The notes under the pieces were generated by a model. That model saw only the letters and a program-made list of their open reading frames with translations, was not told where the DNA came from and made no database searches. A stretch of DNA of 64,000 nucleotides. Origin: Sphingomonas sp. Its GTDB lineage: Bacteria > Pseudomonadota > Alphaproteobacteria > Sphingomonadales > Sphingomonadaceae. The stretch is taken from NCBI RefSeq assembly GCF_039594485.1, contig NZ_JBCNNI010000002.1:19715-83714 (forward strand). Reading direction: 5' to 3'. A program made the position numbers and the translations under genes. Numbering within the stretch: position 1 is the first letter of the stretch; every line of letters starts with the position of its first letter. Of this stretch, positions 1,461 to 23,357 are shown piece by piece.

Positions 1461-1961
1461 ATGACCCAACACGACGACGCCATCCTCCGCGCCTACACCG
1501 TTGCGGCGACCCGGCTTCTGCTCGGCAACCGCAAGCTGAAAGACGGCGTCGTCGTCACGGGTGGTGAGGCGCTCGACCAGGAAGAGCGCGCCCAGATGGC
1601 GCGGACGGCGGCCCTGTCCGGCACCGACGTCGTCGCGCTGGAGTTCGGCACCACCGCGGATGGTCGGTTCGGGCGGACCGGGATCACGGTCTACCTACCG
1701 CGAGACGAGGGCTGCTATGTCCAGACCGACTGCCGCTTCTGGCTGAGCAAGGCGGGCAACCGCGCCGTGATCCTGCCTCGGTCGGAATCGCGTGGGCATT
1801 TCCGCCTGTCGCCGCGCGAACTGATCCACATCGACGGCAAGCCAGCGGAGGATATGGTCGACGGCATAGCGCGAGCGGATGCCTGGCTGGCGCGTCGGAT
1901 GGGGTCTAAGTTTGCCGAGCCCGCAAACACGAACTTCTTCAGCGTGCACGAACTCGCTTGA
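1461..1961 (+). CDS. hypothetical protein
   Basis: 166-aa ORF with an AGGAG 9 nt upstream of the ATG. Coding-like codon bias. No RES or other toxin motif recognised. Confidence 0.5.
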   Translation: MTQHDDAILRAYTVAATRLLLGNRKLKDGVVVTGGEALDQEERAQMARTAALSGTDVVALEFGTTADGRFGRTGITVYLPRDEGCYVQTDCRFWLSKAGNRAVILPRSESRGHFRLSPRELIHIDGKPAEDMVDGIARADAWLARRMGSKFAEPANTNFFSVHELA

Positions 1962-2228
1962 TCAGCTTATTGCCCAGAAGGCGTATTGGCCAATGGCAGG
2001 TGTGTTTCAGATGGAGGCAGCGCTGAGGTTGACGCCTGACGGTAACAGGCCTCAGTGAGGTGCGGATCGTACAGTCTGGTGACTAGCGGCTCGTCTGCTT
2101 TCGGGCGGCAATCGCCGTTAAGCCGCGTTTCAAAACAGGCAACAGCCCTTCGAAATTTACTCACGTACGGCAACGAATTCTGCTTTAGTGCATCGAGGTG
2201 ACAAACAGGGCTGAGCGAAGGCGCCAGA

Positions 2229-3419
2229 ATGAGCGGACACGACTTGAAGGATCTTACACCCGACGAGGACATCGATGGCCTGGACAGTAGCGAAGAAGCC
2301 AGCAGTCATTCCGGCTCCCTCAAGCCGTGGGATCCCAGCAAGATCCGGATCACAACCAAATCCTTCACGCTGCGGGAGATCGTTGGGCAAATCGAAGACG
2401 GCGACATTGACTTGTCGCCCGATTTTCAACGGGAATATGTCTGGAAGGAACGTCAGCGGACTCGCCTCATAGAATCGATCTTGCTCGGCATCCCGCTCCC
2501 GGCCTTCTACTTTAATCAGTCCGAGAGCGGTTCCTATCAAGTTGTCGATGGTGTCCAACGCCTTTCGACAATCGCCACTTTTATGAAGGACGACCATCGC
2601 TTAGCCGAGGTCGATCTCGAATATCTTTCGGACCTAGACGCTTTGACGTACAGCCAGCTCGATACGGCAGCGGTGCGCCGATTCCGGAGCACGCAGATCG
2701 TTGTTCATGTCATCGAGCCGCAAACGCCGGACGAAGTGAAGTACGACATCTTTAATCGTGTAAACACGCTCGGCAGCCCCCTTTCAGCTCAGGAGATTCG
2801 GCATGCAATGAGCGACGTGCGCTCTCGCTCGTTCCTCGGGAATTTGGTCGAAAGCGATGCTTTCGACGCCGCAACAGAGCAGCATTACTGGAAACGGACT
2901 GCAGAAGGCACGAAGGTGCGCGACAGCGGGCGCATGGCCAATCGCGAGCTCGCGCTAAGGTTCTGCGCCTTCCGGTATAGTACGATCGAACAGTATCGCC
3001 AGTTTCCTAGTCTCGATGCTTTCCTCATGAATTTCACCAAGCGCATAGACAAGACGGCTGAGCCTGTGCTGACGGATACCGAACTTAGAACGCTGGCATC
3101 TGCCTTCGATAAGGCAATGGTAGCGGCGAAAGAAATTCTCGGTCAGGCAGCCTTCCGCCGTTGGCCAATGGACGCCGATCGACGCGAGCCTCGACGCGGA
3201 CCGATCAATCGCGCCGTTTTCGAAGCACAAGCCAATGCGCTTGCCGATCTCAAGCTTGAAGACATGTTACCGCATCGTGATAAGATCGTCACAGCTTTCC
3301 GAAGAGCGTTTGACAATGGCGATTATCTTCGAGCAGTAACCGTCGGTACCGGCGACGCCAATCGAGTAGCATACCGCCTTGATCAAACTCGCAAAATTCT
3401 CGCGGATGCCATGAAGTGA
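2229..3419 (+). CDS. DUF262 (ParB/Srx-like, GmrSD N-terminal type) domain protein
   Basis: Contains SPDFQREYVW and VVDGVQRLSTI (DGQQR-type), the hallmarks of DUF262. 396 aa. First gene of a three-gene cassette. Confidence 0.85.
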   Translation: MSGHDLKDLTPDEDIDGLDSSEEASSHSGSLKPWDPSKIRITTKSFTLREIVGQIEDGDIDLSPDFQREYVWKERQRTRLIESILLGIPLPAFYFNQSESGSYQVVDGVQRLSTIATFMKDDHRLAEVDLEYLSDLDALTYSQLDTAAVRRFRSTQIVVHVIEPQTPDEVKYDIFNRVNTLGSPLSAQEIRHAMSDVRSRSFLGNLVESDAFDAATEQHYWKRTAEGTKVRDSGRMANRELALRFCAFRYSTIEQYRQFPSLDAFLMNFTKRIDKTAEPVLTDTELRTLASAFDKAMVAAKEILGQAAFRRWPMDADRREPRRGPINRAVFEAQANALADLKLEDMLPHRDKIVTAFRRAFDNGDYLRAVTVGTGDANRVAYRLDQTRKILADAMK

Positions 3420-4525
3420 TAACCGGTATCGCCGTCAGCGGTTTCAAGCGTTTTCAGCATGAGCCCTTCGAGTTCGCACCACTTACCGTGCTCACCGGAT
3501 TAAACGGAGCCGGCAAGACCTCGTTGCTGCAGGCTATTCTACTCGCAGCTCATGCTTCTACAAGCACCGCCCGCACCTTGAGCCTGAATGGGCCGTTCAA
3601 TCTCGAATTGGGAATGGCTGAGGACGTGCTCAACTGGATGTGGCCAGGCCCGATCGAGGTCAATGCCGCCGGGATCGGTGGCACGGCAGCAAGGTGGCGT
3701 TTTGCCGTTCCGAACGAGGAAGATCTTTATCTCGAGGTGGCTGAGCGGCCGAACAACCCTCCCAAGGCATTTACCGGCGCGCCCAGAACTTTCACGTATC
3801 TAAGCGCTGAACGCCTTGGACCCCGTGGCATTAGCCAAGTATCGCCACTTCCCGATACAGAACTGGAAGTTGGCGTTAAGGGTGAATACTGCGCTCATGT
3901 CCTTAGCGTCCTTGGTGACATGCTGATTGAAAACCCGGAGCGCTCCCATCCTTTGTATAATGCGCCTTCACAGCGGCTCCTCAAATATGAGGTCGAGCAA
4001 TGGCTCAGCGAGATCACGCGCCCGATCGAAGTGACCGGTGAACGGATGGCAGCCTCCACCGTCGCGGAATTGCGCTTTCGCAATCCTGGTTCTGATTGGG
4101 TCCGCGCGACCAATATGGGGTTTGGCATCTCCTACGCGCTGCCGATTATCCTTGCCGGGCTCATCGCCGAACCCGGCGGCCTCCTAATTGTCGAAAATCC
4201 AGAGGCGCATCTGCATCCCGCCGGGCAGTCTCGTATGGGCGTCTTCCTCGCATGGCTTGCGGAACGAGGTGTACAGGTTCTGGTCGAAACACACTCGGAC
4301 CATCTCGTGAACGGCATCCGCCGCGCAATCGCTGAACACGGTTATCTCGAGCCAACCAGTGCCGTCGTACACTGGTTCGGTGCGGGTGAAACTTTGGACC
4401 AGCCCTTCCATGAAACTCTCGCAATTGGCAGTGATGGTAGCCTGTCAAACTGGCCAAACGGCTTTTTCGATCAGTATCAAATTGACGTCTCGGCGCTAGG
4501 CCGCGTCAGGCGTGGGCGCCGCTGA
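3416..4525 (+). CDS. AAA/ABC-type ATPase, DUF3696 family
   Basis: The GTG start overlaps the upstream stop (GTGA, 3416-3419). Walker A is GLNGAGKTS. Walker B/D-loop is LLIVENPEAHLHP. H-loop is ETHSDH. The C-terminal WPNGFFDQY is typical of DUF3696 proteins. Confidence 0.85.
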   Translation: MITGIAVSGFKRFQHEPFEFAPLTVLTGLNGAGKTSLLQAILLAAHASTSTARTLSLNGPFNLELGMAEDVLNWMWPGPIEVNAAGIGGTAARWRFAVPNEEDLYLEVAERPNNPPKAFTGAPRTFTYLSAERLGPRGISQVSPLPDTELEVGVKGEYCAHVLSVLGDMLIENPERSHPLYNAPSQRLLKYEVEQWLSEITRPIEVTGERMAASTVAELRFRNPGSDWVRATNMGFGISYALPIILAGLIAEPGGLLIVENPEAHLHPAGQSRMGVFLAWLAERGVQVLVETHSDHLVNGIRRAIAEHGYLEPTSAVVHWFGAGETLDQPFHETLAIGSDGSLSNWPNGFFDQYQIDVSALGRVRRGRR

Positions 4526-4528
4526 GTA

Positions 4529-5521
4529 GTGGCGTTCATCGTCAACAGCGCAGAGTGGGACTTCAACGGCCTGACTTCGGCAAATGTACAGGAGCGAATC
4601 GAGCGAGCGCTGGAATTCATCGAGACGTCAATCGAGCGCGGCGAGGTGGTGGCAGTCGGCGATGATTTTCAGACACGGCCCATGCATGGAACCGAGACTC
4701 TCTGGGACCTATTTCACAAGGATTCTGCACTTGCCTTGCCACCAGAACTTTCGCGCGAACTCGAAGCATGGCTGATGCGTGCACCGGGATATTCGAGCGA
4801 GCCCTGGCCGTTGGGCTTTGCTAACGAAGGCGTTTCTATTGATGGCGCGCCTCAAACTTTAAATCCAGATGTTGAATGGGTGCATTGCGCGACATGTGAT
4901 GGCACCCCAATGGCATGTATCACGCTCGGCATTGGGCGCCTCGTACAGACCGAGACGGCAGTAGGGAAAGTACAAATTCACTTCGTTATCAACGAGGTCG
5001 ATCGAAAAGCATTTTGGAGGAGCGCTATCATCGTTTCTGGTGATACATTAACGAGCCTGGCGACCTATTTGACCAAAGCTTACCCGAATCTCCATTTCGT
5101 CGAAGGTGTAGTCAATGACGCTGGTAAGCTTGGAGGTGGATATCTCGCATCTCGTGATCGCGTGCAGACGTCCCTTGCAACGCTGGATGACTGGGGCAAG
5201 TGGGTATTCACCTGTCCGCCGCCAGTCCTGACGCCGCAGGAAGCCATGCCTGATAATACTGATGGCTTGCCGTCCAACCAGATCATCGAACATAGATTTA
5301 AAGGCTTTAACCTTGACGTCGTACCAGAAAAGCCTAACGTTTATGCCGATGCAGAAAGCCGCAAAGCACGGCAAACAAAGTTAGGAACACGCACGCTATA
5401 CTGCGAGTGGCATGTTAGGCTTGAGGGGCATCGCAACCGTATTCATCTACATCCGCCGGTAGCTGAAAGCGGAGGTAAGGTTGTAATCGGCATGATTCAC
5501 GAGCATTTGCCACTGCCCTGA
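4529..5521 (+). CDS. hypothetical protein, third component of the DUF262/DUF3696 cassette
   Basis: The GTG start lies 3 nt after the upstream stop. 330 aa with no family recognised. Has a Cys/His cluster (VHCATCDGTPMAC) and the C-terminal segment YCEWHVRLEGHRNRIHLHP...VVIGMIHEHLP. Confidence 0.7.
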   Translation: MAFIVNSAEWDFNGLTSANVQERIERALEFIETSIERGEVVAVGDDFQTRPMHGTETLWDLFHKDSALALPPELSRELEAWLMRAPGYSSEPWPLGFANEGVSIDGAPQTLNPDVEWVHCATCDGTPMACITLGIGRLVQTETAVGKVQIHFVINEVDRKAFWRSAIIVSGDTLTSLATYLTKAYPNLHFVEGVVNDAGKLGGGYLASRDRVQTSLATLDDWGKWVFTCPPPVLTPQEAMPDNTDGLPSNQIIEHRFKGFNLDVVPEKPNVYADAESRKARQTKLGTRTLYCEWHVRLEGHRNRIHLHPPVAESGGKVVIGMIHEHLPLP

Positions 5522-5812
5522 GCCTCGGCTTTTCCTGAGGAAATCACCAAAAATGCCGATCGCATATAGGAGATCAAATCGTAACGAGGTACAGTGGCGA
5601 CGTAAGCAACCGACGAGGAAGGTGCCGCAATTTCAGGCTGACGAAAGCTAATCCAGTTGTTGATGAACAGGTGACTGTCATCGGGTAGCTTGCAGATTTC
5701 CCGCCAACGTCGAAAAATTAATCAAAATGACATTCCGTTGATCATCGATCTACTGGCGCAGGCCGGCAAAATATCGAGATGCTCTTCTCGGCGGTTCGGA
5801 CCAGAGCAGCGT

Positions 5813-8800
5813 TCACCACCGTTCGGCGAGCAACTCCGCCTGCTGTATTACCGTCTGCACAGCCACATCCTGAAGGTCTGGTGGAAACCCGTATTTACGC
5901 AAGATTCGCTTTACGAGCACCCGCATGCGAGCGCGGGCACTTTCGCGATGCGACCAGTCGACCGTCGCGCTCGCCCTCAGGGTGTTCACCAACTCGGCGG
6001 CGATCACCTTCAGGCTGTCATTCCCCATGATGTCCACCGCACTTTCGTTGTCCGCAAGCGCGTCGTAAAAGGCGATCTCGTCGGGGGTCAGGCCTTCGGC
6101 TTCGCCACGGGCCTGCTCGGCGCGGATCTGCTTGGCCAATTCGATCAGCGTCTGCAACACCTCGACCGTGCTAACCGCGTTGGTGTGATAGCGGGCGATG
6201 GCGTCGGTCAGGCGTTCGGAATAGCGGCGGCTTTCTACCGCGTTGGTGCGGCTGCGAGAGCGGATCTGGTCGCCGAGCAGCTTCTTCAACGCCTCCAGCG
6301 CCAGGTTCGGCAGCTCCATCGCCTTCACCTCGGCCAGAAAGTCGTCGGACAGGATCGAAATGTCCGGCGTCGTGAGGCCCGCGGCACGCAATATGTCGAC
6401 GATCTCGGTCGATACGACCGACCTGTCGATAAGCTGCTGGACGGCGAAGTCGCGATCTTTCACCGTGCCACCGCCGCCGGTCTTGGCAAGCGCGGCACGG
6501 ATCGTCTGGTAGAAGGCGATGTCGTCGCGGATCGCACGCGCCTCGTCACTGGCGGCCGCCAGGGCAAAAGCCTTGGTCAGCGCAAGCACCGCGTCCTGGA
6601 AACGGCGATGCGCCGCCTTGCGGGCCTCGTCGCTCGTCTCCTTCGCCGCCGCCTCGTGCTGTCGAGCAAGAATGAATTCGATCGCTTCCGCCAAGCATTT
6701 CAGACGTGCGACCGGTGTGCCGGAAATGCCAGGCGTGCAGTCAAAGCCGTGGAACATCGCCCGCACCACGTCGAACTTCTCGAGCAGCACCGCGACGGCC
6801 TCCGCCTCGTCGATACCTGTCTCGGCGGCGTCGGAGGCGGAGTATTGGCCGAGCGCCTTCTTTAGATTCTGGGCGATGCCGATGTAATCGACCACCAGAC
6901 CGGCCGGCTTGTCGCGGAACACGCGGTTCACGCGCGCGATCGCCTGCATTAGGCCGTGACCGCGCATCGGCTTGTCGATGTACATGGTATGCATCGATGG
7001 CGCGTCGAAGCCGGTCAGCCACATGTCCCGCACGATGACCAGCCGCAGCGGATCGGCCGGGTCTTTCGCCCGCTTGGCCAGCAGGTCGCGGCGCGCCTTG
7101 TTGCCAATGTGCGGCTGCCAAGCGGGAATGTCGGCGGCGGAGCCGGTCATCACGACCTTTACCGCGCCCGTCTTGTCATCGTCGCTATGCCAGTCGGGCC
7201 GCAGTGCGACGATCACGTCGTAGAGCGCGACGCAGATCCGGCGGCTCATACAGACGACCATCGCCTTGCCGTCCATCGCCGCCAGCCGATCCTCGAGATG
7301 CGCGACCAGATCGGCGGCGATCATTTCCAGCCGCGCGCTTGATCCGACCAGCTTCTCCACGGCGGACCAGCGCTGCTTCAGCCGTTCCTGCTCGCTCAGC
7401 GCCTCGTCTTCGGTCAGGCCGTCGATCTCGGCGTCGATGACCGGCAGTTCCTCGGGCGGCAGCTCGATCCGGGCCAGTCGGCTTTCGTAATAGATCGGCA
7501 CCGTTGCGCCGTCCTCGACCGCGCGGGCAATATCGTACACGTCGACATAGTCGCCGAACACCGCGGGCGTATTGACGTCATCCTTCTCGATCGGCGTACC
7601 GGTAAAGCCGATGAACGAGGCATTGGGCAGTGCATCACGCAGATATTTTGCGAAGCCATAGGCCAGTTCACCGGTCTTGCGGTCGATCCGCGCGCGAAAG
7701 CCATATTGCGAACGGTGCGCTTCGTCCGCGATCACGATGACGTTGCGGCGGTCGCTGATCGCGGGATAGCCACTGGTCCCCGGCGGCGGCGCGAATTTCT
7801 GCATCGTGGTGAAGATCACCCCGCCGGACGCGCGGTCGAGCCGTTCGATCAGGTCCTCGCGGCTGTCGATCTGGATCGGCGTCTGGCGGATGAGGTCCGA
7901 ACACATCGAGAAGGTCGCGAACAGTTGATCGTCCAGGTCGTTGCGGTCGGTGATGACGACGATCGTCGGGTTCTCCAGCGCCGGTTCGCGCACCAGTAGC
8001 CCGGCGTAGAAGGCCATCAGGAAGCTCTTGCCCGACCCTTGCGTGTGCCAGATCACCCCGATCCGGCGGTCGCCGGCCGGATGCGCGGCGGCGTCAGGCA
8101 AGCCGTAGCGCAATGGGCTTTCCCGCATCGCCCCCACCGCCGACACACCCGGCACCGCGCGCAACGTCGCGGCGACGGCGCGCTGGGCGGCGTGGAACTG
8201 GTGATAGCCAGCGACGATCTTGACGATGCCGCGCCCGGTGTCGCCGAACACGGTGAAGTCGCGGATCAGCATCAGCAGGCGCTGGCGGTCGAGCACGCCC
8301 GCGATCATCACCTCCAGTTCGGGCACGCCCTTGGCGGCGATGTCCTCGCCATCGACGGTGCGCCAGGGCATGAAGCGTTCCTGGTCGGCGGTCAGCGATC
8401 CGATCCGCGCGGTCATGCCGTCCGAAGCAATCAGCAGCGCGTTGGTGCGGAACAGCGACCCGATCTCGCTCTTGTAGGTCTGGAGCTGATTGTAGGCGCC
8501 GGCGACGGTGGCGTTCTCGTCGCCCGGATTCTTCAGCTCTATGACCGCGATTGGCAGGCCGTTGAGGAACAGCACGATGTCGGGACGGCGGGTGTGGCCG
8601 CGCTCGATGACGGTGAACTGGTTGATCGCCACCCAATCGTTCATGTCGAGGCCACCGGCGGGAGTGGTGAAATCGACCAACCGCACCCGGTCGCCACGGA
8701 TCGTCCCGTCCGGCGCATGATATTCGACCGGCACCCCCTCCACGATCAGCCGGTGGAGCCGCCGATTTTCCTCGACCTGCCCCGGCATCTCGACCGCCAG

Positions 8801-9022
8801 CACCCGGCGAATCGCGTCGGCCCGGGCATCGGCGGGGATGTGCGGGTTGAGCCGATCGACCGCCGCGGTCAGGCGCGCGGTCAGGATCACGTCGCTGTTC
8901 GCCGTGCGCTCGGGTGCCTTGCCGTCGGGCGAGGCATCGATGCCATAGGCGACCTGCCAGCCCTGTTCGGCCAACCACGCGAGCGCGGCGTCCTCGACGA
9001 TGGATTCGGTCAGCTTCGCCAT
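5813..9022 (-). CDS. hsdR: type I restriction endonuclease subunit R
   Basis: 1069 aa. Helicase motifs [19 protein letters not shown] (DEAH) and GFTGTPI. N-terminal nuclease region and a long helical C-terminus typical of HsdR. Confidence 0.95.
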
Positions 9023-9047
9023 CAGGCGGGCGTGCCGGTGGTGTTGA

Positions 9048-10286
9048 TCATGCCGCCAGCGCCTTGGCGTCGCGGACGCGGAGTTCGCCGGACATCAGTT
9101 TAGGGAGCAACGCGTCGCGGGTGGCGGCGAGGGTAGCCGCTTGTGCAATATTTGCTTCGCGTTTCGCATACAATTCTCCAGCGATCTTATCGAAGGCGAG
9201 GATGGCTACCATCGGTGGCTTAACAACGGGCAGGTTGTGGATGTGATTTCGATTTAACGTCGGAACCGCAGAACCGGCATTGAACGAGCCAATGTCTATT
9301 TCGAGGAGGACATGAAATGCATGGAGCGGCGTAGAATTTGGATACTCCTTGATCCACAAGGACGTGTTCAAGGGCCAGAAATCTTCGGCGACGTAATAGA
9401 CACCCCCCAGCACGCCGGATCGCCCGGTACACACACCAGGGCCATCAACCCGCTTCTCATTGTGGGTGCCGCTGGGGCCACTGGCAGCGATAACGGGGAA
9501 AGCTCCATCGGTTCTATCGCCTTTGGGAAGATCGAATCCCCTCTGCAAAACCAGCACCTCGTTGAGCGTCCCCCATTCCCACCCCTCCGGCACGCCATTT
9601 TCACCGAGGCGGTCGGGGAAGAGTGACCAGAGATCAGGGGCGAGATAGGCGGGGCGGCCTTCTGCCTTGGCGCGGGTGGGGCCGAAATCGACGAACCAGT
9701 CCCGAAACAACGCCCGCGCGCTCGCCTCCAGCGTCTCGTTCATCCGCCGGTTGAGCTCGATCTTTTCGTCGAGGGCCGAAAGGACGGTTGCGATCGCGCG
9801 CTGTTGATGGCGGTCCGGCCATAACACCGGGGCATCACGAAGAATTCCGAGATTAATATGCGGAACGCCGGTCTGAATAGTCGATGTCTTAATATATTCG
9901 AGGAAAAATGATGAAGTGAGATAGTGGTATACAAAGTCGCGATCTGCGACTTTCTGATCGACAGACACGGCCATCTGACTCTGCGAAACTACATACTGCT
10001 TGTAGCTGCTATCGGGAACGATGGCGACCTGGCCAAGTGTTCCACGCTGCGTCACGATGATATCGCCGGGCCTAGCTGTATTGGTAGTTAAATCCTGCGC
10101 AAATTTCTCGTGCGAGACAAAGACGAAATCACCCGCGATCTCACGACCAAGATCCATGTTCCTGCCGCGAATAACCGGCACACCGTCTGCTACATAATGC
10201 GCTTGGGTTAGCTTCGAACCAAATGGCCCGCCGATGACGCGATGCTTTCCACCGACCGCGTCGGCGAAAGATTGCAACATCATCAC
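9048..10286 (-). CDS. hsdS: type I restriction-modification specificity subunit S
   Basis: 412 aa. Two target-recognition-like halves separated by conserved helical spacers (...[16 protein letters not shown]..., ...[14 protein letters not shown]). Lies between hsdR and fic/hsdM and is A/T-richer than its neighbours. Confidence 0.9.
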
Positions 10287-11383
10287 GCCGCCCCATCCAC
10301 AAACAAAGCCACCAATCGCTGGTTCATATAATAGTTATTCCGCCCAATCCGCTGTTTGTCCAGAAACCCCGCCGCCGCCAGGGTGTCGAGATATTTCGTC
10401 GCGGTCGGCCGGGAAATCCCCAGTTCCTGCTCGACATATTCGATCCGCGTGTAGGGGTGGCGGAACAGATTGTTGAGCAAGTCCTGCGAATAGACCTTGG
10501 GATGGTCAGTCCGGATACGCTGCTTGTACTCGGCCATCAGCATCCGCATCCCCTCGATCAGCGCGAGCGTGTCCTTCGCCGTCTGCGCGACGCCTTGGAT
10601 CATGTAGAGCAGCCATGCCTCCCAGGCTTCGGCGGACCCGCGCGTGTCACGCACGGCCTGCAACAGCCGGTAATAATCGCCCTTCCGGCCGGTGATCCAA
10701 CGGCTGAGATACAGCACCGGCACGTCGAGCAGCCCGGTGCGCGTCAGGTACAGCATGTTGATGATCCGTCCGACGCGGCCGTTGCCGTCGCTGAACGGGT
10801 GGATGCTTTCGAACTGGTGATGGATGATCGCCATCTTCACCAGCGGGTCGAGATCGCTGGCGTCATCCTCGTTGATGAACCGCTCCAGCGCGGCCATGTG
10901 TCCGCGCACCGCATCGCCCTCCTGCGGGGGGACGTACACCATCTCGCCGGTCTGGTCGTTCTTCAGCGCAGTGCCGGGGGTGTTGCGGAACGTCTCGTCG
11001 GTGCGCTTCAGCATCTGGAACATGGCGACGATCATGTTGTTCGTCAGCAGGCCGCCCAGTCGCCGCTGCTGTACGAAGCCCTCGCGCAGGGCTTCGGCAT
11101 AGCGCGCGACTTCCTTCGCATCAGCGGACGAGGGGTTTTCCGGAAAGACGCTGGCGCGGAACAGCTCGTCCTGCGTGGTGACGATGTTCTCGATTTCCGA
11201 GCTGGCTTTGGCTTCCTGCAACGCCAGCGTGTCAATCAGGATGCCCTGGTTGGGGATCGCGGCGGCGCGGCCCTTCAACTCCGCCAGATGCCGATGCGCC
11301 TGCGTCAGCGCGCGCAGCACTGCCGCCGTTTCCTGCACCCCCGGAGGGGGCAGGTCCGGGATGATGTAGCTCGCCTTGAGCAT
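10283..11383 (-). CDS. Fic family protein (AMPylase-type) with an N-terminal inhibitory motif
   Basis: Fic core is HPFSDGNGRVGR. The N-terminal SSEIEN matches the (S/T)xxxE(G/N) auto-inhibition motif. C-terminal wHTH-like tail. The stop overlaps the hsdS start by 4 bp. Start chosen at MLKASY (GAGG 8 nt upstream); the ORF could extend to 11422. Confidence 0.9.
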   Translation of the reverse strand: MLKASYIIPDLPPPGVQETAAVLRALTQAHRHLAELKGRAAAIPNQGILIDTLALQEAKASSEIENIVTTQDELFRASVFPENPSSADAKEVARYAEALREGFVQQRRLGGLLTNNMIVAMFQMLKRTDETFRNTPGTALKNDQTGEMVYVPPQEGDAVRGHMAALERFINEDDASDLDPLVKMAIIHHQFESIHPFSDGNGRVGRIINMLYLTRTGLLDVPVLYLSRWITGRKGDYYRLLQAVRDTRGSAEAWEAWLLYMIQGVAQTAKDTLALIEGMRMLMAEYKQRIRTDHPKVYSQDLLNNLFRHPYTRIEYVEQELGISRPTATKYLDTLAAAGFLDKQRIGRNNYYMNQRLVALFVDGAA

Positions 11384-11457
11384 CGGACAGCCTCGTGAAA
11401 GAAATGTGCGATTTTTTCGCACGTCGCTAGTGACGTGTAAAGGAAACCCGATTTTCT

Positions 11458-13047
11458 TTACACGTCCGCCGAACGTGTCAAATCCGTTGCTGCATCGTCG
11501 GGCACAATCACGCTGGCCAGCCTCTGACGGATGACGTCGGTCAGCCGCGCGCTTTCGGCGAACTGCTCTTCCAGCGTCGCCTGCAGCGTGGCGAAGCGTT
11601 CGGCGAAGGAAATTGTGTCCGCTTCAACGTCTTCGGCGCCGACATAGCGGCCGGGGGTGAGGACATAGCCATGGCTCGCAATGACGTCATGCCGCGCTGC
11701 GCAGGCGAAACCCGGGACATCCGCATAGCCTTCACCCTCGCGCCAAGCATGATAGGTGTCGGAGATCTTCGCGATGTCGGCATCGCTGAACTCGCGCCGT
11801 GTGCGGTCGACCATGTGGCCGAGCTTGCGCGCGTCGATGAACAGAATCTCACCGCGCCGGTCGCGCAGCTTCTTGTTACGGCCAATGCCGTTCGACTTAT
11901 CCTTCGCCAGGAACCAGATGCACACTGGAATCTGGGTCGAATAGAAGAGTTGACCCGGCATCGCGATCATGCAGTCGATCACGTCGCCATCCACCATCGC
12001 CCGGCGGATGTCACCTTCGCCATTCTGTGTCGAGGACATCGACCCGTTGGCCAGGATGACGCCCGCGGTGCCGGTGGGCGCCAGATGGTGCAGGATGTGC
12101 TGGAGCCAGGCGAAGTTGGCGTTGCTGGCGGGCGGCGGACCGAACTGCCACCGCGCATCCTGCTTGATCCGGTCGCCGCCCCAGTCGGAGATGTTAAACG
12201 GCGGATTTGCGAGCACGTAATCGGCGCGAAGGTCAGGCAACTCGTCCTTGTGGAAACTGCCCTCGCTGTTCCAGCGGATGTCGGCGTCGATGCCGCGCAC
12301 CGCCAGGTTCATCATCGCCAGCCGCCACGTCGTATGGTTGGATTCCTGGCCATAGATGGCGATGTCGCCGATCCGCCCGCCGTGGCTTTCGACGAACTTC
12401 TCCGACTGAACGAACATGCCGCCGCTGCCGCAGCACGGATCATACACGCGGCCCTTATACGGTTCGAGCATCTCGACCATCGTCCGCACAACCGAGCGCG
12501 GGGTGTAGAACTCACCGCCACGCTTGCCTTCGCTGCCCGCGAACTGGCCGAGGAAATATTCGTAGACCCGGCCCAGCAGGTCGCGGGACGCGTTGCTGGC
12601 GTCTTTGAAGCCTATGCCGGAGATCAGGTCGATCAGCTCGCCGAGCATCACCGCGTTCAGGCCGGGGCGGGCGTAATCCTTGGGCAGAACGCCCTTCAGC
12701 CCCGGATTGACCTTCTCGATTTCCAGCATGGCGTCGTCGATGATCTTGCCGATGCCGGGTTGCTTCGCGCTCGCCTGCAGGTGGGACCAGCGCGCCCCCT
12801 TCGGCACCCAGAAGATGTTGTCGGCACGATATTCGTCCTCGTCCTCGGCGCCTTCGGGATACTCGGCGAGGAGTTCGGCATGCTTCGCCTCGAACCCCTC
12901 GGATATGTGCTTCAGGAAAATCAGGCCGAGCACGACGTGCTTGTAGTCGGAGGGCTCCATGTTGCCGCGTAGCTTGTCGGCCGCGCGGAAGAGCTCCGCC
13001 TCAAAACCCAAAACTCCGCCCGCTATCTTCTTCGCTACCCGTGCCAT
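11458..13047 (-). CDS. hsdM: type I restriction-modification N6-adenine DNA methyltransferase subunit M
   Basis: 529 aa. Contains the HsdM N-terminal domain, the SAM motif [10 protein letters not shown] and the catalytic NPPF (LANPPFN). Confidence 0.95.
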
Positions 13048-14439: not shown

Positions 14440-16791
14440 ATGGATGGCAACAGGAGTCCGGCTATGTCGATCCAGCGTCCCCTCGGTCCCATCGGTCATT
14501 GTTCTGCACGGTTGCGACGCCTGCTCGCGATCGAGGAGGAAGAGGCGCTCGGCCGCACGGTACGGGTCCGGCGGGATGTCCGTGACGCGGTCAGGGACCG
14601 GAAGCCGCACGGCAATCGCTGGTCGCGCTCTCCCAATTTCGCGGTACCGGGTGCCTTCCACCAGCGGTTCGTCTCGGCAGACGGAAAGGTCACCTTCAAC
14701 TTCACCTTCGAGCCGGTCAGCAAGACCAGCGATGGCGGCTGCCAGATCAAGACGTCGGAGGGAACCAGGCGATTGGAGGCCGGGGCACCGAAGGACCACG
14801 ATGCCTATATCGACCGTCCCGGGGCGGTGGAGGTCACGATCTCACCGGACGGATTCGACCGCTATGCGGTGAGACCGTCCGCGACGGAGGCAATCGATGG
14901 CGAGCGCGCCGTCTTTTCCAACATCTCGCCCGATCCACTGGAACGGCAAGCCTATTGGCAGGCCGTGCACGAGTGCGAACGCACGCCCGGCGTGGACCGG
15001 CTGACGCTGGTGCCGGAGAATGCGTCGCGCGGCGCCTGGCAGGCGCTGGCGGCCGCGCCCGATGTCCCTGAGGCGGTGCGCGACATTGCCGCCGTCTTCG
15101 CCACCGCCAGGGGCAAGCGCAAAGCCCGCGCCATCCCGCTCGATGATCTGGCAATCGACGGTGCCGCCGCGCGCGAATTGGCGGAGACGCTCGCCACGAT
15201 CCTGGGGACCGGCAAGAAGAAGTCGGCTGTCAGGGTCTCGAAGGGACGTGGCGGACGGACGCAATACCGGTTGACGGCGGAGTTTCCCGATGGGCTCGAT
15301 GCCGTGGGTCGGCGAGCGATCACCCAAGCCATCTGCGACCGGCTGGATTCGGCCGGCATCATGTACGTCGCCGCGATCCATGCGCCCGATCATCACAATG
15401 ACCACCGCAATCACCACCTGCATCTTGCCTGTCATGACCGACCCGCCAGGAAGATCGGGGACCGTTGGGACTTCACGATCGCCGAGGAGGTCGAGGGACA
15501 GCATCGCCGGGTCCGCTATCCGTACGCACAGAAGAAGGTGGCCGAATGGTCTCGCGATCCGGGCGGCGGGAACCATCGCTACTATGGCAGCACCTCGGTG
15601 GCTGAGATGCGGGCATTCTTCGCCGACCGGTGCAACGAGGAACTCGACCGGCTGGGCGCCACCCGCAAGTTCCATCCAGGCACGCTGCGCTCGCTGGGGT
15701 GCGAGCGCGACGGGCAGAAGCCACTCGGCACCCGTGCGGCGCCGCTGGAGGCCGTCGGCGTGCCGACCGCGAAGGGCATCGACAATGCCGAGCTCCTCTG
15801 GTCGGCCCTGCTGCGCGAAGCGTGGACCGCGGCTGAGGAGCGCACCAAGGCCCGCACCGCCCTCCGCCGCCGGCTGGCCGAGGCGGAGCGTCGGTTCACG
15901 GAGGGAGCGGTTGTCGATCAGGCCCACGTCGCCGCCATCCGTGATCTGACCGCCCGGCTCGATGTGGCCGACGCGGTGCTGCGCCAGCATGATGCCGAAT
16001 GCGCCGAGTACGACGTCACGCTGGCCATGGCACGCGCCCGCCCGGACAAGACGATCACCGTCTGCCGCCGCATCCTGAAGGCCATCGGCGAAGGCAAGGC
16101 GGACTCGGCCGAGCAGCGGGCGAACGCCGCGATCGCAGCCCGCGCTGACGCAGCCGAGGCGTTCCTCGCCGGCATCGCCGCCATCGAGCGCGATCATGCC
16201 CCGGTGCTGGCCGAGTACCGGACGGCGGTCACAACGGCCCAGGCGGAGGTCGAGGCGATCGCGGATGCGGCAACGCCGCTGATCGAACGCCCTGCACCTG
16301 CTCGCACCCTCGAGCCGGCCCGTCCGGACCTGCGGGCAACGCTCGAGGCGCTGTTCGACCGGATCATGACGGACGACATACCGATCCTGCCGCCGGGCGG
16401 CACGGTGACCGAATATCGTGTGCCCGGCGTGACGCGCGTAGAATTCGCCGCTCTGACCACGCCCGCCCTGGCCGAGATGGCGCAGAAGCGCCTTGCCGCG
16501 CTGGCTGACATTCAAGCCAAGCGGATGACCGCTGCCGCAAAGCATGTGGCATCAATCGGCACGGACGGCCTGACGCGTGCCACCGCCGATGGCGACCCGG
16601 GCGCGGCGCGGACGCTGAAGCACATCCGCGCCTATGGCACCCATCCCGTCTATCTGCATGCCGTGGCAACGGCGCAGAGGGCAGAACCGCAGGTCGCCAC
16701 CAGAGTCGACGAGAGCGGCAGCGCATGGCGCCGATTGGTCGGGGGGGCTATTCGGACGCAATACGCCAATTCAACCAACCACCCGCATTGA
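14440..16791 (+). CDS. MobA/MobL-family relaxase-like protein, possibly frame-disrupted at the 3' end
   Basis: Histidine cluster IHAPDHHNDHRNHHLHLACHDR and a long Ala/Arg-rich helical C-terminal half, as in mobilisation relaxases. The exact start is uncertain (14440 or 14464). The ORF ends 44 nt after a G7 tract. Confidence 0.7.
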   Translation: MDGNRSPAMSIQRPLGPIGHCSARLRRLLAIEEEEALGRTVRVRRDVRDAVRDRKPHGNRWSRSPNFAVPGAFHQRFVSADGKVTFNFTFEPVSKTSDGGCQIKTSEGTRRLEAGAPKDHDAYIDRPGAVEVTISPDGFDRYAVRPSATEAIDGERAVFSNISPDPLERQAYWQAVHECERTPGVDRLTLVPENASRGAWQALAAAPDVPEAVRDIAAVFATARGKRKARAIPLDDLAIDGAAARELAETLATILGTGKKKSAVRVSKGRGGRTQYRLTAEFPDGLDAVGRRAITQAICDRLDSAGIMYVAAIHAPDHHNDHRNHHLHLACHDRPARKIGDRWDFTIAEEVEGQHRRVRYPYAQKKVAEWSRDPGGGNHRYYGSTSVAEMRAFFADRCNEELDRLGATRKFHPGTLRSLGCERDGQKPLGTRAAPLEAVGVPTAKGIDNAELLWSALLREAWTAAEERTKARTALRRRLAEAERRFTEGAVVDQAHVAAIRDLTARLDVADAVLRQHDAECAEYDVTLAMARARPDKTITVCRRILKAIGEGKADSAEQRANAAIAARADAAEAFLAGIAAIERDHAPVLAEYRTAVTTAQAEVEAIADAATPLIERPAPARTLEPARPDLRATLEALFDRIMTDDIPILPPGGTVTEYRVPGVTRVEFAALTTPALAEMAQKRLAALADIQAKRMTAAAKHVASIGTDGLTRATADGDPGAARTLKHIRAYGTHPVYLHAVATAQRAEPQVATRVDESGSAWRRLVGGAIRTQYANSTNHPH

Positions 16792-17413
16792 ACCAATACC
16801 GCAGCCACACACGTCGGAACCGGCCAGGGATCCGGCACCATCCTCGCGCGACGAGGCCATCGCTGCGCTAGCCGCCGCGCTCCTCGCTGAACCCACCCTG
16901 CGGGTCGTCGAACGGGAGCATGGGCTCGTCATCGATACCGCCGACGCTCCCGAATGGCGGATGTCCGCCGACGCCTTTGCCGACGCGCCGGCGGTCCTTG
17001 ACGCGATGCGTCGACGTCACGCGGCGCCGTGGCTTGACCACAGCGTCGCTGAACGGAACCGCCTGCTGGCCGACCTCCGCGCCGCCCTGATGAGTGTCAC
17101 CCGGCCTCCCCTCCGGAAGATCGGGGAACAGTGGAACATCGACCTCCCCGACAAACGGCTCGCTGCCCTTGTCACCCGCTGGCGCGGGTACGACCGTCTC
17201 GACGCCCTTCTGGCTGACGTCGATCACCAGCGGCGGGGGACCGGCGTCGATCGATACGTCGTCGAGGGATCGACCAGCGTCGGGACCGGCGACGCGACCG
17301 TCAGCCGCGTCCCGGATCTCGGCACGGATCGTGGTGATGGGCTGCAGGACGACCGCGCCTTCGTCCCCATGGGCTGGGGGGACCGGGGTCGGGGGCAGGA
17401 CGGTGGACGCTAG
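16634..17413 (+). CDS. ORF in the +1 frame relative to the relaxase; a displaced relaxase C-terminus or a separate gene without a canonical start
   Basis: Protein-like sequence with GC-rich third positions runs from about 16790 (DEAIAALAAALLAEPTLRVVEREHGLVIDTADAPEW...). There is no ATG/GTG/TTG between 16791 and the ATG near 16960. The frame is reachable from the relaxase frame at the G7 run (16741-16747). Confidence 0.35.
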   Translation: MAPIPSICMPWQRRRGQNRRSPPESTRAAAHGADWSGGLFGRNTPIQPTTRIEPIPQPHTSEPARDPAPSSRDEAIAALAAALLAEPTLRVVEREHGLVIDTADAPEWRMSADAFADAPAVLDAMRRRHAAPWLDHSVAERNRLLADLRAALMSVTRPPLRKIGEQWNIDLPDKRLAALVTRWRGYDRLDALLADVDHQRRGTGVDRYVVEGSTSVGTGDATVSRVPDLGTDRGDGLQDDRAFVPMGWGDRGRGQDGGR

Positions 17414-17989
17414 GTAGCGCTTCACCGTCGCCCCGCTGATGCCGAACTGCCTGGCGGTGACGGACAGGCTCGCCCCGTTCGTGCTGCGCCAGGCGATGAC
17501 CTCGACGGGGTCCGCCTTGCGCGGTCGCCCGAGGCTCGCCTTGCCACGGTGCGTCCGGCCGGTGGCGGCGAGCGACTTCCTAGCGTGATCACGCCCGGCC
17601 TGGGTGCGCTCGCGGATGGCCTCACGCTCCATCTCCGCGATCTCTGCCAGCACCGCGACGATCAGCCGACCTGCGCTCGAGCTGATCGAGCCGAGTCCAC
17701 GGACGACGATCTCGACGCCCCTGTCGTTGAGCGCCCGCACCGTCGCGTGGATGTCGATGGCATTGCGGCCCAGCCGATCAATGGCGGTGACGTGCAGCCT
17801 GTCGCCCTCGCGGAGGTATCCGAGCATTGCAGCGAAGCCGGATCGATCCCGGGCCAGCACCGAGCCGCTGACGCCCTCATCGAAGAATTCCTTGTCGAAG
17901 GGCTGGTTCGTCGATCCGAGCAACGCGCTACGCTGCGCCTCGATCGTCTGACCGCTGGTCGACACACGGTAATAGGCAATCTCACTCAT
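16868..17989 (-). CDS. serine recombinase (resolvase/invertase family) with an unusual long C-terminal read-through
   Basis: N-terminal YYRVSTSGQ (catalytic Ser), DRLGRN, and an HTH (SVTARQFGISGATVKRYL) ending about aa 195 (near 17404). The frame then stays open for another ~175 codons, antisense to the + strand ORF. Confidence 0.85.
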   Translation of the reverse strand: MSEIAYYRVSTSGQTIEAQRSALLGSTNQPFDKEFFDEGVSGSVLARDRSGFAAMLGYLREGDRLHVTAIDRLGRNAIDIHATVRALNDRGVEIVVRGLGSISSSAGRLIVAVLAEIAEMEREAIRERTQAGRDHARKSLAATGRTHRGKASLGRPRKADPVEVIAWRSTNGASLSVTARQFGISGATVKRYLASTVLPPTPVPPAHGDEGAVVLQPITTIRAEIRDAADGRVAGPDAGRSLDDVSIDAGPPPLVIDVSQKGVETVVPAPAGDKGSEPFVGEVDVPLFPDLPEGRPGDTHQGGAEVGQQAVPFSDAVVKPRRRVTSTHRVKDRRRVGKGVGGHPPFGSVGGIDDEPMLPFDDPQGGFSEERGG

Positions 17990-18000
17990 TCTTTTTCATC

Positions 18001-18113
18001 CTGGGGTGAAAGTTACCCCAGCACTTCCGAACCTAGCTCAATTGCCTTTCTTCTATCTTCTGGGCCCGCGCTGACGCCCGTCGAGACCTTGGCGCGAAAG
18101 TTGGAACTTTCGC
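18001..18113. promoter_or_regulatory. GAAAGTT-containing palindromes between the resolvase gene and a small ORF (candidate res/operator sites)
   Basis: CTGGGGTGAAAGTTACCCCAG (18001-18021) and the perfect palindrome GCGAAAGTTGGAACTTTCGC (18094-18113) share the half-site GAAAGTT. Confidence 0.4.
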
Positions 18114-18157
18114 ACGGAGGAAGACGAGGGAGGACCGAGTGTGTGGAGGAGGATGAA

Positions 18158-18364
18158 ATGAGACCGCCGACGATGACGGACGAAGAGGCAGACGCCCTCT
18201 GGCTAGAAATGTGCCTCGAACTGGCCAAGCCGCCCATCGAAACCATCGCGGTAAACGACAATGCCGGCCACATCCCCGTCAGAAAGGACCAGGGACCGCG
18301 TCGGTACTGTTTCGTCTATACCGCTCAGACATTCATGATGGCCGAATGGCAGGATGTTCGCTGA
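18158..18364 (+). CDS. small hypothetical protein (68 aa)
   Basis: ATG preceded by GGAGGAGGA. The upstream part of the 271-aa track ORF is antisense to the resolvase gene and was discarded. Confidence 0.4.
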   Translation: MRPPTMTDEEADALWLEMCLELAKPPIETIAVNDNAGHIPVRKDQGPRRYCFVYTAQTFMMAEWQDVR

Positions 18365-18397
18365 TCGACGACAGAAACGCGAACGCTTGGCGTTAAG

Positions 18398-18463
18398 TGG
18401 GGGTAAGGGGGTGTAGTCGCTGTGCAGTTCCCACTGCTCATCGCCTCCACCCCCTTACCCCCA
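18398..18463. repeat. perfect 16-bp inverted repeat with a 34-nt spacer
   Basis: TGGGGGTAAGGGGGTG (18398-18413) pairs with CACCCCCTTACCCCCA (18448-18463). An A/T-rich stretch (ATAACTATTATACTGACC) follows. Lies upstream of the AAA ATPase gene. Confidence 0.8.
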
Positions 18464-18605
18464 TAACTATTATACTGACCAATCCCTGCGATCGGGTCAA
18501 CAGGTGCACGTCCTCGACAAAGCGATCGGGATCGCCGGTGGCTGCGCGTAAGCCTGACTTTAACGACCCGGCCGTATCCCAGCTGCCTATAGAGGGAACC
18601 GCCAG

Positions 18606-19919
18606 ATGACCGGAGAAAGTTGGACTGTCCGCGCCCGCCAAGGACACTATCAAGCTGTCGATGCGGCATCGGACCGACAGACGATGGACTATGCCGTCGA
18701 GGGCCTGATGCCTGCCACCGGGGCAACGATCTGGTTCGGCGCAGGATCGACCGGCAAGACGCAGCTGCTTCTCTGGCTCGCGGCGCATATTGCCGCCGCC
18801 GGCGATAAGACGCCGCGTCAGTGGCTAGGCGCGGATGTCAACGTCCGCGGCCATGTGCTGGTCCTGACCGCCGAGGATCTGCGCGAGCATGTGCTCCAGC
18901 GCATCGGCATGATCGCCCGCCGCATGATCGACCAGTCTGGCGGCTCCGACGAGGACGTCGCGGCGCTTTGCCGGCGTATCCATGTCATGGCCTTCCTGAG
19001 CATGGACACGACGGAGTTCACGGAGCCTAATCCCTGCCTGTTCAAACGGGGAGCAGGCGGATGGCAGCCAAGCGCTGTCCTCAAGGGCGTCGAATCCTTC
19101 CTCGACGACTGGAACGCCCGCGCCGAGGACAATGGTCGCCCCGAGGACCGGATCGTCGGGGTCATTCTCGACTCCGCCGTATCGATGGCGGGATTCGAAC
19201 TCGCCAATTCCGAGGCGACGACGAACTTCCTCTTCTACCTGAATCGCCTGTCACGGCGGCAGAAGATGTTCTGGGCGGTGATCGGCCACACGCCGAAGGA
19301 CGCGGCAAAGAAGGCCGACGACGCCGCGATCGAGCGGCTGCGTGGCTCGGCCATGTGGTCGACCACGCCCCGCACCGTCGTCGAAGTCCGGCTCGCCGGA
19401 CCGTCCGAGGACCTGGAATCCGTTCGCGCCGCCCATCCCGGCCTGACCGACCGCGACGTCGTCATCGTCGAGGTGGCCAAGGCAAACTCGCTCGGCGCCG
19501 ATCTGCGGCCTCGCGCGCTGCTCCGGGACAAGCGCGGCGCCTATGACGATATCACGTCGGACTTCCCCGGCATCTTCAGTGCGGCCCCTGCGCCGTCGCG
19601 GGGCAAGGCGACCCTGCATACACCCGAGCTCCGCCGCGCCGTTCTAGCCCTGCTCGCGACGTTCGACGGCGGTAAGCCAGGCACCGTCATCGAACGGGAC
19701 GCGATCCGTGGCGCGTTCAACGCGGCGAAGGCATCGTCCCCGGTCCTCGCCGCAATCTCCGACGAGATCGAAGGCAAGCGTGGGAAAACACCCGGAACGC
19801 TGGCCAAGGAACTGGCGGACATGAACAAGGCCGGTCTGATCGATACGCACCGGGGTAACATCCGCATCGTCGACCTCGCGGCCGACAATGACCAGCCGTT
19901 GGCTGAGGCCGCAGAATAG
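18606..19919 (+). CDS. RecA-fold AAA family ATPase (AAA_25 / RepA-like, mobile-element type)
   Basis: Walker A is GAGSTGKTQ. Walker B-like VGVILDS. 437 aa. Domain family assigned by eye. Confidence 0.75.
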   Translation: MTGESWTVRARQGHYQAVDAASDRQTMDYAVEGLMPATGATIWFGAGSTGKTQLLLWLAAHIAAAGDKTPRQWLGADVNVRGHVLVLTAEDLREHVLQRIGMIARRMIDQSGGSDEDVAALCRRIHVMAFLSMDTTEFTEPNPCLFKRGAGGWQPSAVLKGVESFLDDWNARAEDNGRPEDRIVGVILDSAVSMAGFELANSEATTNFLFYLNRLSRRQKMFWAVIGHTPKDAAKKADDAAIERLRGSAMWSTTPRTVVEVRLAGPSEDLESVRAAHPGLTDRDVVIVEVAKANSLGADLRPRALLRDKRGAYDDITSDFPGIFSAAPAPSRGKATLHTPELRRAVLALLATFDGGKPGTVIERDAIRGAFNAAKASSPVLAAISDEIEGKRGKTPGTLAKELADMNKAGLIDTHRGNIRIVDLAADNDQPLAEAAE

Positions 19920-19932
19920 CAAGAGCGTGCAT

Positions 19933-19991
19933 TCGTCCAAATATGGCCATCAATGTTGCGTGATCTCGCTTTACGGGCCATATTTGGACGA
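19933..19991. promoter_or_regulatory. perfect 16-bp inverted repeat at the hipB start (candidate operator)
   Basis: TCGTCCAAATATGGCC (19933-19948) pairs with GGCCATATTTGGACGA (19976-19991). The right arm ends on the A of the hipB ATG. Confidence 0.5.
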
Positions 19992-20314
19992 TGCTGCACA
20001 CGCCTAGCGAAATCGCGGCCGATCTCGGCCAGAAGGTCCAGCGCCGCCGACTGGCGATGAACCTGACGCAGGTCGATGCGGCGGCCCGTGCTGGCGTGTC
20101 CTACCGCACGTGGCGGCGGCTGGAGGCCGAGGGCAAGGCGTCGATCGACGACCTCGTCCGCGCGGCCGTGGCGCTGCGATGCGAACAGGATCTGTTCTCC
20201 CTGTTCCCGGAGCCGGTGGCCAGTTCGATGGATGCCCTGCTGGAGCAAAAACGGATGACCGAACGCACCGCGCCGAAGCGTCGCCGCCGGGCTGCGTCGA
20301 GGATTCCATCGTGA
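19991..20314 (+). CDS. hipB: XRE-family HTH antitoxin, HipB-like
   Basis: HTH segment RRLAMNLTQVDAAARAGVSYRTWRRLE. 107 aa. The stop overlaps the hipA GTG (GTGA). Confidence 0.8.
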   Translation: MLHTPSEIAADLGQKVQRRRLAMNLTQVDAAARAGVSYRTWRRLEAEGKASIDDLVRAAVALRCEQDLFSLFPEPVASSMDALLEQKRMTERTAPKRRRRAASRIPS

Positions 20315-21555: not shown

Positions 21556-21603
21556 GAAGAAGGCCCTGCACGTGGGGGTTACCCACGTCAGGAAGGAAAA
21601 GAC

Positions 21604-23354: not shown

Positions 23355-23357
23355 CGA

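Follow-up and report, generated by a model that had tools for sequence, protein, structure and literature searches.

Which system do three tightly packed genes in a defence island of Sphingomonas encode, and is that system a new one? The genes lie near the left end of a 64,000-nucleotide stretch of Sphingomonas sp. DNA (assembly GCF_039594485.1, contig NZ_JBCNNI010000002.1, positions 19,715 to 83,714 of the forward strand), which we call the window and whose numbering is used throughout. An initial annotation, made by a model from the letters alone, had read the three products as the sensor (a DUF262 protein), the motor (a DUF3696 ATPase), and the effector (a third protein without an assigned family) of a candidate anti-phage system. 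It had named the Menshen (NsnABC) system as a combination of these two families, and had proposed an undescribed architecture should that be wrong or the third gene differ. We conclude, with a probability of about 90%, that the block from 2152 to 5610 is a complete, intact Type I Menshen system (nsnA-nsnB-nsnC) and that it is part of a defence island carried by a mobile element.

Gene Layout and Composition of the Cassette

The three genes, named nsnA, nsnB, and nsnC below (coordinates in Table 1), lie on the same strand and are coupled. The TGA stop of nsnA overlaps the GTG start of nsnB in the sequence GTGA at 3416-3419, and the TGA stop of nsnB (4523-4525) is followed by GTA and then by the GTG start of nsnC at 4529, a gap of 3 nt. 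The open reading frames (ORFs) and the sequence thus bear out the co-directional, coupled arrangement that the initial annotation had described. The A/T-richer third codon positions that it had noticed are real as well: the cassette genes have a GC content of 0.53-0.58 and a GC content at third codon positions (GC3) of 0.54-0.62, versus a GC3 of 0.79-0.84 in the flanking genes and a GC content of 0.66 for the whole window. A sliding profile of 300 nt shows the drop in GC at about 1950 and its recovery at about 5800. The two spacers, which had been called A/T-rich, have a GC content of 0.55 (1962-2228) and 0.50 (5522-5812); the label holds for both solely relative to a 66% GC genome.

Three Sphingomonas sp. 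records, WP_343525343.1, WP_343525344.1, and WP_343525345.1, have exactly these protein sequences; NCBI labels them 'DUF262 domain-containing', 'DUF3696 domain-containing', and 'hypothetical', respectively. Public gene calls disagree on the start of nsnC, giving either a 330-aa product (WP_343525345.1) or a 279-aa product. The longer form, and with it the GTG at 4529, is supported by homologues from 20 genomes, whose alignments begin at its residue 1. The GTG start of nsnB is supported in the same way, since its homologues in other genomes align from residue 1.

All Three Proteins Match Menshen Models End to End

We compared the proteins with PADLOC and Pfam models. The PADLOC Menshen models match all three end to end, and other defence models match far less strongly and in part only. 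The naming of Menshen was therefore correct, and the fallback of an undescribed architecture is rejected: even the NsnC subtype of the window has a full-length PADLOC model, PDLC03914.

NsnA matches the PADLOC NsnA model with an E-value of 7.4e-110 over residues 21-395 of 396, the C-terminal region included, and Pfam GmrSD_N/DUF262 with an E-value of 8.1e-28 over residues 49-193. It carries QREYVW at 67, DGVQR at 107, and FNRVN at 175, which correspond to the QRxxxW, DGxQR, and FxxxN motifs of Type I Menshen, and it shares with Type I the C-terminal helical domain. Residues 1-48 form an acidic, Ser-rich tail ahead of DUF262; distant NsnA homologues do not align to this tail, and their alignments begin at about residue 31. 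No additional globular N-terminal sensor domain precedes DUF262, and for this reason the system is of Type I by the published definition. NsnA is the proposed DNA sensor and combines a ParB-like DUF262 NTPase with a C-terminal helical (ParBDB-type) region. Its weaker matches are to PD-T4-2_A (1.4e-28), PDC-M55C (7e-6), SspE (local, 7e-7 at best), and, weakly, REase_II.

NsnB matches the PADLOC NsnB model (E-value 4.9e-97, residues 1-361) and the Pfam families AAA_21 (1.8e-20), AAA_15 (3.2e-19), and DUF3696 (3.1e-9, residues 312-361). The DUF262 and DUF3696 assignments made from the letters alone thus stand, and the two motifs singled out with them, GLNGAGKTS and DGVQR, are both present. The Walker A motif of NsnB, GLNGAGKT, lies at 28 (Lys34), its signature, GFG, at 235, and its Walker B motif, LLIVEN, at 256, with an atypical EN in place of DE. 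An ABC ATPase with a Walker B EN, a GxG signature, and a DUF3696 tail is also what Type I Menshen systems have. NsnB is an ABC/OLD-type ATPase and the proposed transducer that would hold and control NsnC. Its ATPase core also matches the AriA, GajA, Old, and PtuA models with E-values from 1e-22 to 1e-10, and further partial matches are to HEC-03B (1.5e-26) and PDC-M55A (1.3e-22).

NsnC Combines a Subtype-Specific N-Terminal Domain with a Shared C-Terminal Domain

NsnC matches PDLC03914 with an E-value of 2.4e-76 over residues 1-329. Four other PADLOC NsnC models cover residues 256-329 only, and we therefore take the C-terminal domain to be common to NsnC subfamilies whose N-terminal domains are unlike. 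Compared with other Menshen systems, the N-terminal domain of the window's NsnC thus belongs to a different subfamily, and only the C-terminal ~75 residues match the other models. Domain shuffling in NsnC has already been described for the Menshen family (PMC12065111). Neither the whole protein nor its isolated domains gave a Pfam match. A homologue search returned 252 full-length NsnC relatives, all unnamed and without Pfam domains, mostly from alphaproteobacteria.

We modeled NsnC with AlphaFold2 from a 39-sequence alignment (predicted local distance difference score [pLDDT] 93.4, predicted template-modeling score [pTM] 0.90). The model is a very confident one. Its N-terminal domain (~1-235) is alpha/beta, and a short linker of lower confidence leads to the C-terminal domain (~250-330), in which a helix precedes beta strands. 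A length of ~330 aa, a variable alpha/beta N-terminal domain, and invariant H-R-H residues in the C-terminal domain are features that NsnC shares with Type I Menshen effectors. When a profile of the C-terminal domain was run against 1.84 billion representative proteins, it gave 419 matches, nearly all of them at the C terminus of proteins of 276-347 aa, and every one of ten sampled matches was a PADLOC NsnC protein. Another homologue search, with an 88-aa domain profile, yielded short fragments only.

Across 114 diverse NsnC proteins, R281, H295, R304, and H326 alone are invariant; R164, P186, D221, E267, W294, K297, and L327 are conserved in at least 90%. PB-BECR1, which is the most frequent effector domain of Menshen systems, is reported to have an H-R-H triad (PMC12065111), and by their conservation the four invariant residues appear to fit it. 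In Foldseek searches, the sole PDB match of appreciable probability was a BECR toxin, YoeB (7bwf_A; probability 0.41, E-value 0.94, target template-modeling score 0.61). Modeling the C-terminal domain by itself gave a poorer model (pLDDT 75), from which no useful PDB match was obtained, and the sole repeated Pfam match among the 114 proteins was a weak one to EryCIII-like_N in nine members. None of the acidic residues in the N-terminal domain is invariant, and directly after strand 1 the clade carries Asn6 and distant relatives carry Asp, a pattern that seems compatible with an 'inactive PIN-like' reading of this domain.

The Three Genes Are Conserved and Diverge Together

The initial annotation had named co-conservation of the triad as a check of its reading. 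In a scan of one genome per species we found 23 loci encoding the NsnC subtype of the window, spread over alpha-, beta-, and gammaproteobacteria, Myxococcota, and one candidate Eisenbacteria metagenome-assembled genome (MAG). Wherever upstream DNA is available (21 of 21 loci, the remaining two being cut by contig ends), nsnA and nsnB lie directly upstream in the same order and on the same strand, with stops and starts that overlap or nearly adjoin. From locus to locus, the identities of the three proteins to those of the window vary together (rho 0.88 for NsnA and NsnB, 0.83 for NsnA and NsnC, and 0.96 for NsnB and NsnC), the tightest correlation being that of the pair predicted to bind each other. 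The check thus came out in favor of a unit. Mean identity to the window proteins decreases from NsnA (65%) to NsnB (60%) and NsnC (46%); the literature reports the same trend for the polymorphic NsnC effector.

We also measured the ratio of nonsynonymous to synonymous substitution rates (dN/dS) against the two closest relatives. It is 0.05-0.08 for nsnA, 0.07-0.08 for nsnB, and 0.10-0.12 for nsnC, the N-terminal domain of which is the fastest-evolving part (0.12-0.15). Because the values for the three genes range from 0.05 to 0.12, all three are under purifying selection and presumably functional.

Nucleotide Homology Ends Close to the Operon

Where does the unit begin and end? Nucleotide homology to the closest relatives (82-84% identity) is confined to 2152-5582, which is the operon with ~77 nt upstream and ~60 nt downstream. 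At the 5' side, homology starts at 2152-2200 in the three relatives L027 (84%), L025, and L026 (both 82%), and the alignment is conserved as a block from about 2150 to the ATG of nsnA. This leader presumably holds the promoter and the ribosome-binding site. A simple sigma-70 consensus scan detected no promoter on the plus strand of the leader and nothing convincing in either spacer.

At the 3' side, homology with L027 runs to 5582. A trailer motif downstream of nsnC is kept in all four aligned sequences, namely the window, L025, L026, and L027 (~3783-3800). It is a near-perfect palindrome with a 6-bp stem in the relatives (GATCGCATATCGGCGATC) and is degenerate in the window (GATCGCATATAGGAGATC). 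The motif lacks a T run and is therefore not a canonical intrinsic terminator; a terminator consensus scan found none on the plus strand of the trailer either. It may be a terminator-like or a recombination-related element. A search of Rfam with 1700-6100 returned nothing beyond one chance snoRNA match.

The closest relatives adjoin tyrosine integrases or an AlpA gene, and the NsnC subtype of the window occurs on four plasmids and in no phage record. A recurrent flanking gene was sought and rejected: around the 23 loci, at most 3 of the 97 flanking ORFs have a Pfam family in common. By its composition and its borders, the Menshen operon here was acquired horizontally as a self-contained unit.

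One of the related loci, in a Gemmobacter sp. MAG (JBQTJI010000039.1, 144-8993), has a neighbor of interest. Immediately upstream of its nsnABC homologue (5717-8993) is a 1758-aa ORF with the Pfam domains vRNAP_dom and N4_RNAP_helical. This ORF aligns over its full length, with 34-35% identity, to the virion RNA polymerase of N4-like Rhizobium/Sinorhizobium phages. A second flanking ORF, of 1849 aa and on the opposite side, resembles helicases only and is not clearly phage-derived. A Menshen system carried by, or inserted beside, the remnant of an N4-like phage would, if true, be unusual.

The Cassette Lies in a Defence Island with Features of a Mobile Element

We then surveyed the genes around the cassette (Table 1). 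As had been claimed, a type I restriction-modification (R-M) operon (5813-13047), with hsdR, hsdS, and hsdM all on the minus strand, is convergent on nsnC, from which it is separated by 291 bp. A SoFic-type Fic gene is nested between hsdM and hsdS, so that one defence gene lies inside another system. The GC3 of hsdS is 0.63 versus 0.82-0.84 in hsdR, hsdM, and the Fic gene, and this much lower value suggests that the specificity subunit may have been exchanged separately. Divergent from hsdM is a gene for an HNH_2 protein, which may be a further defence-related nuclease of the island. With type I R-M, SoFic, and HNH genes around the cassette, the proposed defence island is borne out. No Dnd or Ssp model was among the 25 strongest PADLOC families listed across the window, which reach down to an E-value of 1e-49.

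Table 1. Features of the cassette and its surroundings (window positions).
Feature	Position	Strand	Details and evidence
Four high-GC ORFs upstream of the cassette	21-353, 355-996, 966-1391, 1461-1961	+	No Pfam or PHROG match
Conserved 5' leader	2152-2228	+	Small palindrome GCAAcgaattcTGC; AAGG ~9 nt before ATG
nsnA	2229-3419	+	ATG start, 396 aa; DUF262 protein
nsnB	3416-4525	+	GTG start, 369 aa; DUF3696 ATPase
nsnC	4529-5521	+	GTG start, 330 aa; effector
Conserved 3' trailer	5522-5610	+	Motif GATCGCATATAGGAGATC at 5558-5575, ~40 nt after the nsnC stop
hsdR	5813-9022	-	Pfam HSDR_N, SWI2_SNF2, T1RH-like_C; PADLOC REase_I E=0
hsdS	9048-10286	-	Pfam Methylase_S; PADLOC Specificity_I 9e-91
SoFic-type Fic gene	10283-11422	-	Pfam Fic_N, Fic, SoFic-like_C; PADLOC SoFic 4.5e-115
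hsdM	11458-13047	-	Pfam HsdM_N, N6_Mtase; PADLOC MTase_I 2.4e-195
HNH protein, 302 aa	13293-14201	+	Pfam HNH_2 8.8e-10; PADLOC HNH PDLC04132 5.2e-18
MobA/MobL relaxase	14440-16791	+	Pfam
Serine recombinase	16868-17989	-	Pfam
AAA_25 protein	18606-19919	+	Pfam
HipB-like HTH	19991-20314	+	Pfam
HipA	20110-21555	+	Pfam
Integrase-like ORF, 566 aa	21465-23165	+	PHROGs phrog_1 3.8e-9; no Pfam match
tRNA-Val(GAC)	23358-23432	-	ARAGORN; sole tRNA, 18 kb from the cassette

The further claim, of a tRNA-associated mobile element, survived in part. An integrase-like ORF does end 190 nt from a tRNA-Val gene, but this tRNA is far from the cassette, and no repeat of its end was found in 1-21000, nor a copy of its 3' end anywhere in the window. 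Because there is no such repeat, the window does not define where the element begins and ends, and the far border is placed left of position 1; a second contig with the identical gene, the only other one, reaches just 1.3 kb further in that direction. The description as a 'defence island on a mobile element' (an integrative mobilizable element) is reasonable. The backbone of this element is the stretch from the relaxase to the tRNA (14440-23432), in which the HipB-like HTH and the HipA kinase form a toxin-antitoxin pair (19991-21555).

We wondered whether the neighboring R-M operon is a regular companion of this Menshen subtype. Homologues of the hsdR, hsdM, and hsdS genes of the window are absent within 8 kb at all 23 related loci, and conserved linkage to type I R-M is accordingly rejected. 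The adjacency is a local arrangement that is not conserved in the NsnC subtype. For Menshen systems at large, an association with type I R-M has been reported before (PMC12065111), and adjoining such an operon is one more likeness of the locus to Type I Menshen.

Discussion

Taken together, the family membership of the three proteins, their intact motifs, the gene order, the correlated divergence, the purifying selection, and the foreign composition identify the cassette as a Menshen system. It has the same three components in the same order as the Type I systems described by Millman et al. (2022) and in PMC12065111; every testable defining feature of Type I is present at the locus, and nothing contradicts its membership. 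The validated prototype of the family comes from a Firmicute, Solibacillus silvestris, whereas the present system belongs to an alphaproteobacterium, Sphingomonas. The S. silvestris system protects against T2, T4, T6, and Fado (Millman et al. 2022, cited in PMC12065111), and its defence is lost when the DUF262 gene is mutated or deleted (PMC10952713). Higher-order Menshen complexes have been seen by mass photometry.

How would the system work? The order of sensor, motor, and effector that the initial annotation proposed is the model already published, together with the NsnABC architecture, for the family (Li et al., Nucleic Acids Res 2025, PMC12065111), and the following steps are drawn from that model. 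NsnA would bind the DNA of an invader by means of two parts, the ParB-like DUF262 NTPase and the helical DNA-binding domain at the C terminus, and DNA-bound NsnA would stimulate the NsnB ABC ATPase, which is predicted to be an ATP-dependent tetramer. NsnB would clamp the inactive PIN-like N-terminal domain of NsnC between pairs of DUF3696 tails, and ATP binding or hydrolysis would then release or activate NsnC. The C-terminal nuclease of activated NsnC, most likely an RNase, would block phage gene expression or abort the infected cell.

Several results weigh against parts of this reading. With the full NsnC model, Foldseek found no match at E<=0.001 in PDB or BFVD. A hidden Markov model profile of the C-terminal domain gave only chance matches to PDB sequences (ribosomal protein S17), and hhalign comparisons with E. 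coli YafQ and YoeB, for which approximate sequences were used, gave probabilities below 2%. Pfam searches of the 114 NsnC proteins at E<=1 detected no PIN or BECR family. The fold being unconfirmed at significance, we hold a BECR RNase to be the most likely identity of the C-terminal domain, short of a demonstration. For the Menshen family, the 'inactive PIN' reading is itself contested, because a 2026 preprint makes the case that in another subgroup the PIN domain may have catalytic activity. Finally, the searchable literature gave no biochemical study of NsnA sensing, of NsnB-NsnC coupling, or of the NsnC substrate.

Could the cassette instead act on DNA, as type IV restriction systems do? 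NsnA would then recognize modified phage DNA in the way GmrS does, and NsnC would be a DNase that cuts it, so that the outcome would be direct restriction in place of RNA cleavage or abortive infection. The likeness to GmrSD, BrxU, and SspE is genuine as far as it goes: a ParB-like DUF262 NTPase sensor with a DGxQR motif is followed by a helical DNA-binding region, and NsnA retains the weak PD-T4-2_A, SspE, and REase_II matches given above. Moreover, the phages against which a validated Menshen system protects include T2, T4, and T6, which carry glucosyl-hydroxymethylcytosine; some reviews and one preprint class Menshen with OLD/Toprim nuclease systems; and the fold of NsnC is not assignable at significance. 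However, the DUF1524 His-Me nuclease domain of the GmrSD group is found in none of the three proteins, nor is an HNH, Toprim, or other DNase domain detectable in them. In the window, output would run by way of two further proteins, an ATPase and an effector, and the SspE models match locally at 7e-7 at best, versus 7e-110 for the NsnA model. NsnB terminates in DUF3696, not in Toprim. The invariant H/R/H residues on a domain of a helix and a beta-sheet, with the weak YoeB match, fit BECR RNases better, and most NsnC C-terminal domains have been assigned to RNases (PMC12065111). We therefore consider DNA targeting unlikely.

The same domains separate the cassette from the other ATPase-nuclease systems. 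Gabija (GajA), Septu (PtuAB), PARIS (AriAB), and OLD resemble it in the ATPase core, and an ATPase oligomer that holds a nuclease effector is also the predicted logic of Menshen. Unlike these systems, NsnB has a DUF3696 tail in place of a Toprim or HNH domain: the OLD and GajA models cover only the ATPase segments of the 369-aa protein, and their C-terminal Toprim was not found. They also lack the third, DUF262 sensor protein that Menshen has. PD-T4-2, PDC-M55, and HEC-03 match NsnA and/or NsnB in part, but far more weakly than the Nsn models do, and the third protein matches NsnC models only.

A further departure from the family model concerns autonomy and substrate: Menshen might here be a non-autonomous module layered with the type I R-M and SoFic genes, or the alphaproteobacterial NsnC effector might not be a BECR RNase. 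In the layered case NsnA would, for example, use the methylation pattern of HsdM to tell self from non-self DNA. As for the effector, this NsnC clade could act on a different substrate, because neither of its domains significantly matches PDB, BFVD, or Pfam. The evidence argues against an obligatory coupling to R-M, given the 23 loci without hsd genes nearby and the differing composition of the two blocks, and we consider this pair of options very unlikely.

Is the cassette a defence system at all, or does it stabilize the element that carries it? As an addiction module, NsnC would be a toxin restrained by NsnB and NsnA, and defence would be incidental or absent. The mobile element does carry HipBA as well, close relatives adjoin integrases or an AlpA gene or sit on plasmids, and the effector domain resembles the RNases of toxin-antitoxin systems. 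Yet the family prototype gives measurable phage protection, the cassette also occurs in contexts without mobile-element genes, and the N-terminal domain of NsnC is highly variable, as would fit an arms race with phages. An addiction function in place of defence is thus very improbable.

We also considered that NsnA reads the methylation written by the adjacent HsdM and that both operons act as one system. The convergence of the two operons at such short distance speaks for it, as does the finding that 27.9% of Menshen loci adjoin BREX, R-M systems, or methylases, from which a coupling to methylases has been raised as a possibility (PMC12065111). Against it stand the 23 related loci, none with an hsd homologue in reach, and their 97 flanking ORFs, of which two encode DNA methylases. 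The closest relatives share the nsn operon only. In addition, the strong difference in composition (GC3 0.54-0.62 versus 0.82-0.84) indicates that the Menshen and R-M blocks were acquired separately, and clustering in defence islands accounts for the adjacency without any coupling. The chance that the two form a single system is slight. That the three genes are adjacent by accident and form no system can be dismissed: their start and stop codons overlap or nearly adjoin, their order is kept in 21 of 21 loci with correlated protein divergence, and at the nucleotide level relatives are alike in the operon only.

A Type I Menshen system thus remains the reading of this locus. The locus is real but ordinary, since it adds one more complete copy of a system that has already been described and was recently reviewed. 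Its importance hardly goes beyond annotation, and standard defence-annotation tools would label it automatically. The three proteins can be renamed NsnA, NsnB, and NsnC. For mutagenesis in this subtype, R281, H295, R304, and H326 of NsnC, K34 and E260 of NsnB, and D107-R111 of NsnA can serve as guides. Finally, with its sharp break in GC3 and with homology that spans the operon and ~80 nt on each side, the locus exemplifies the modular acquisition of a defence system.

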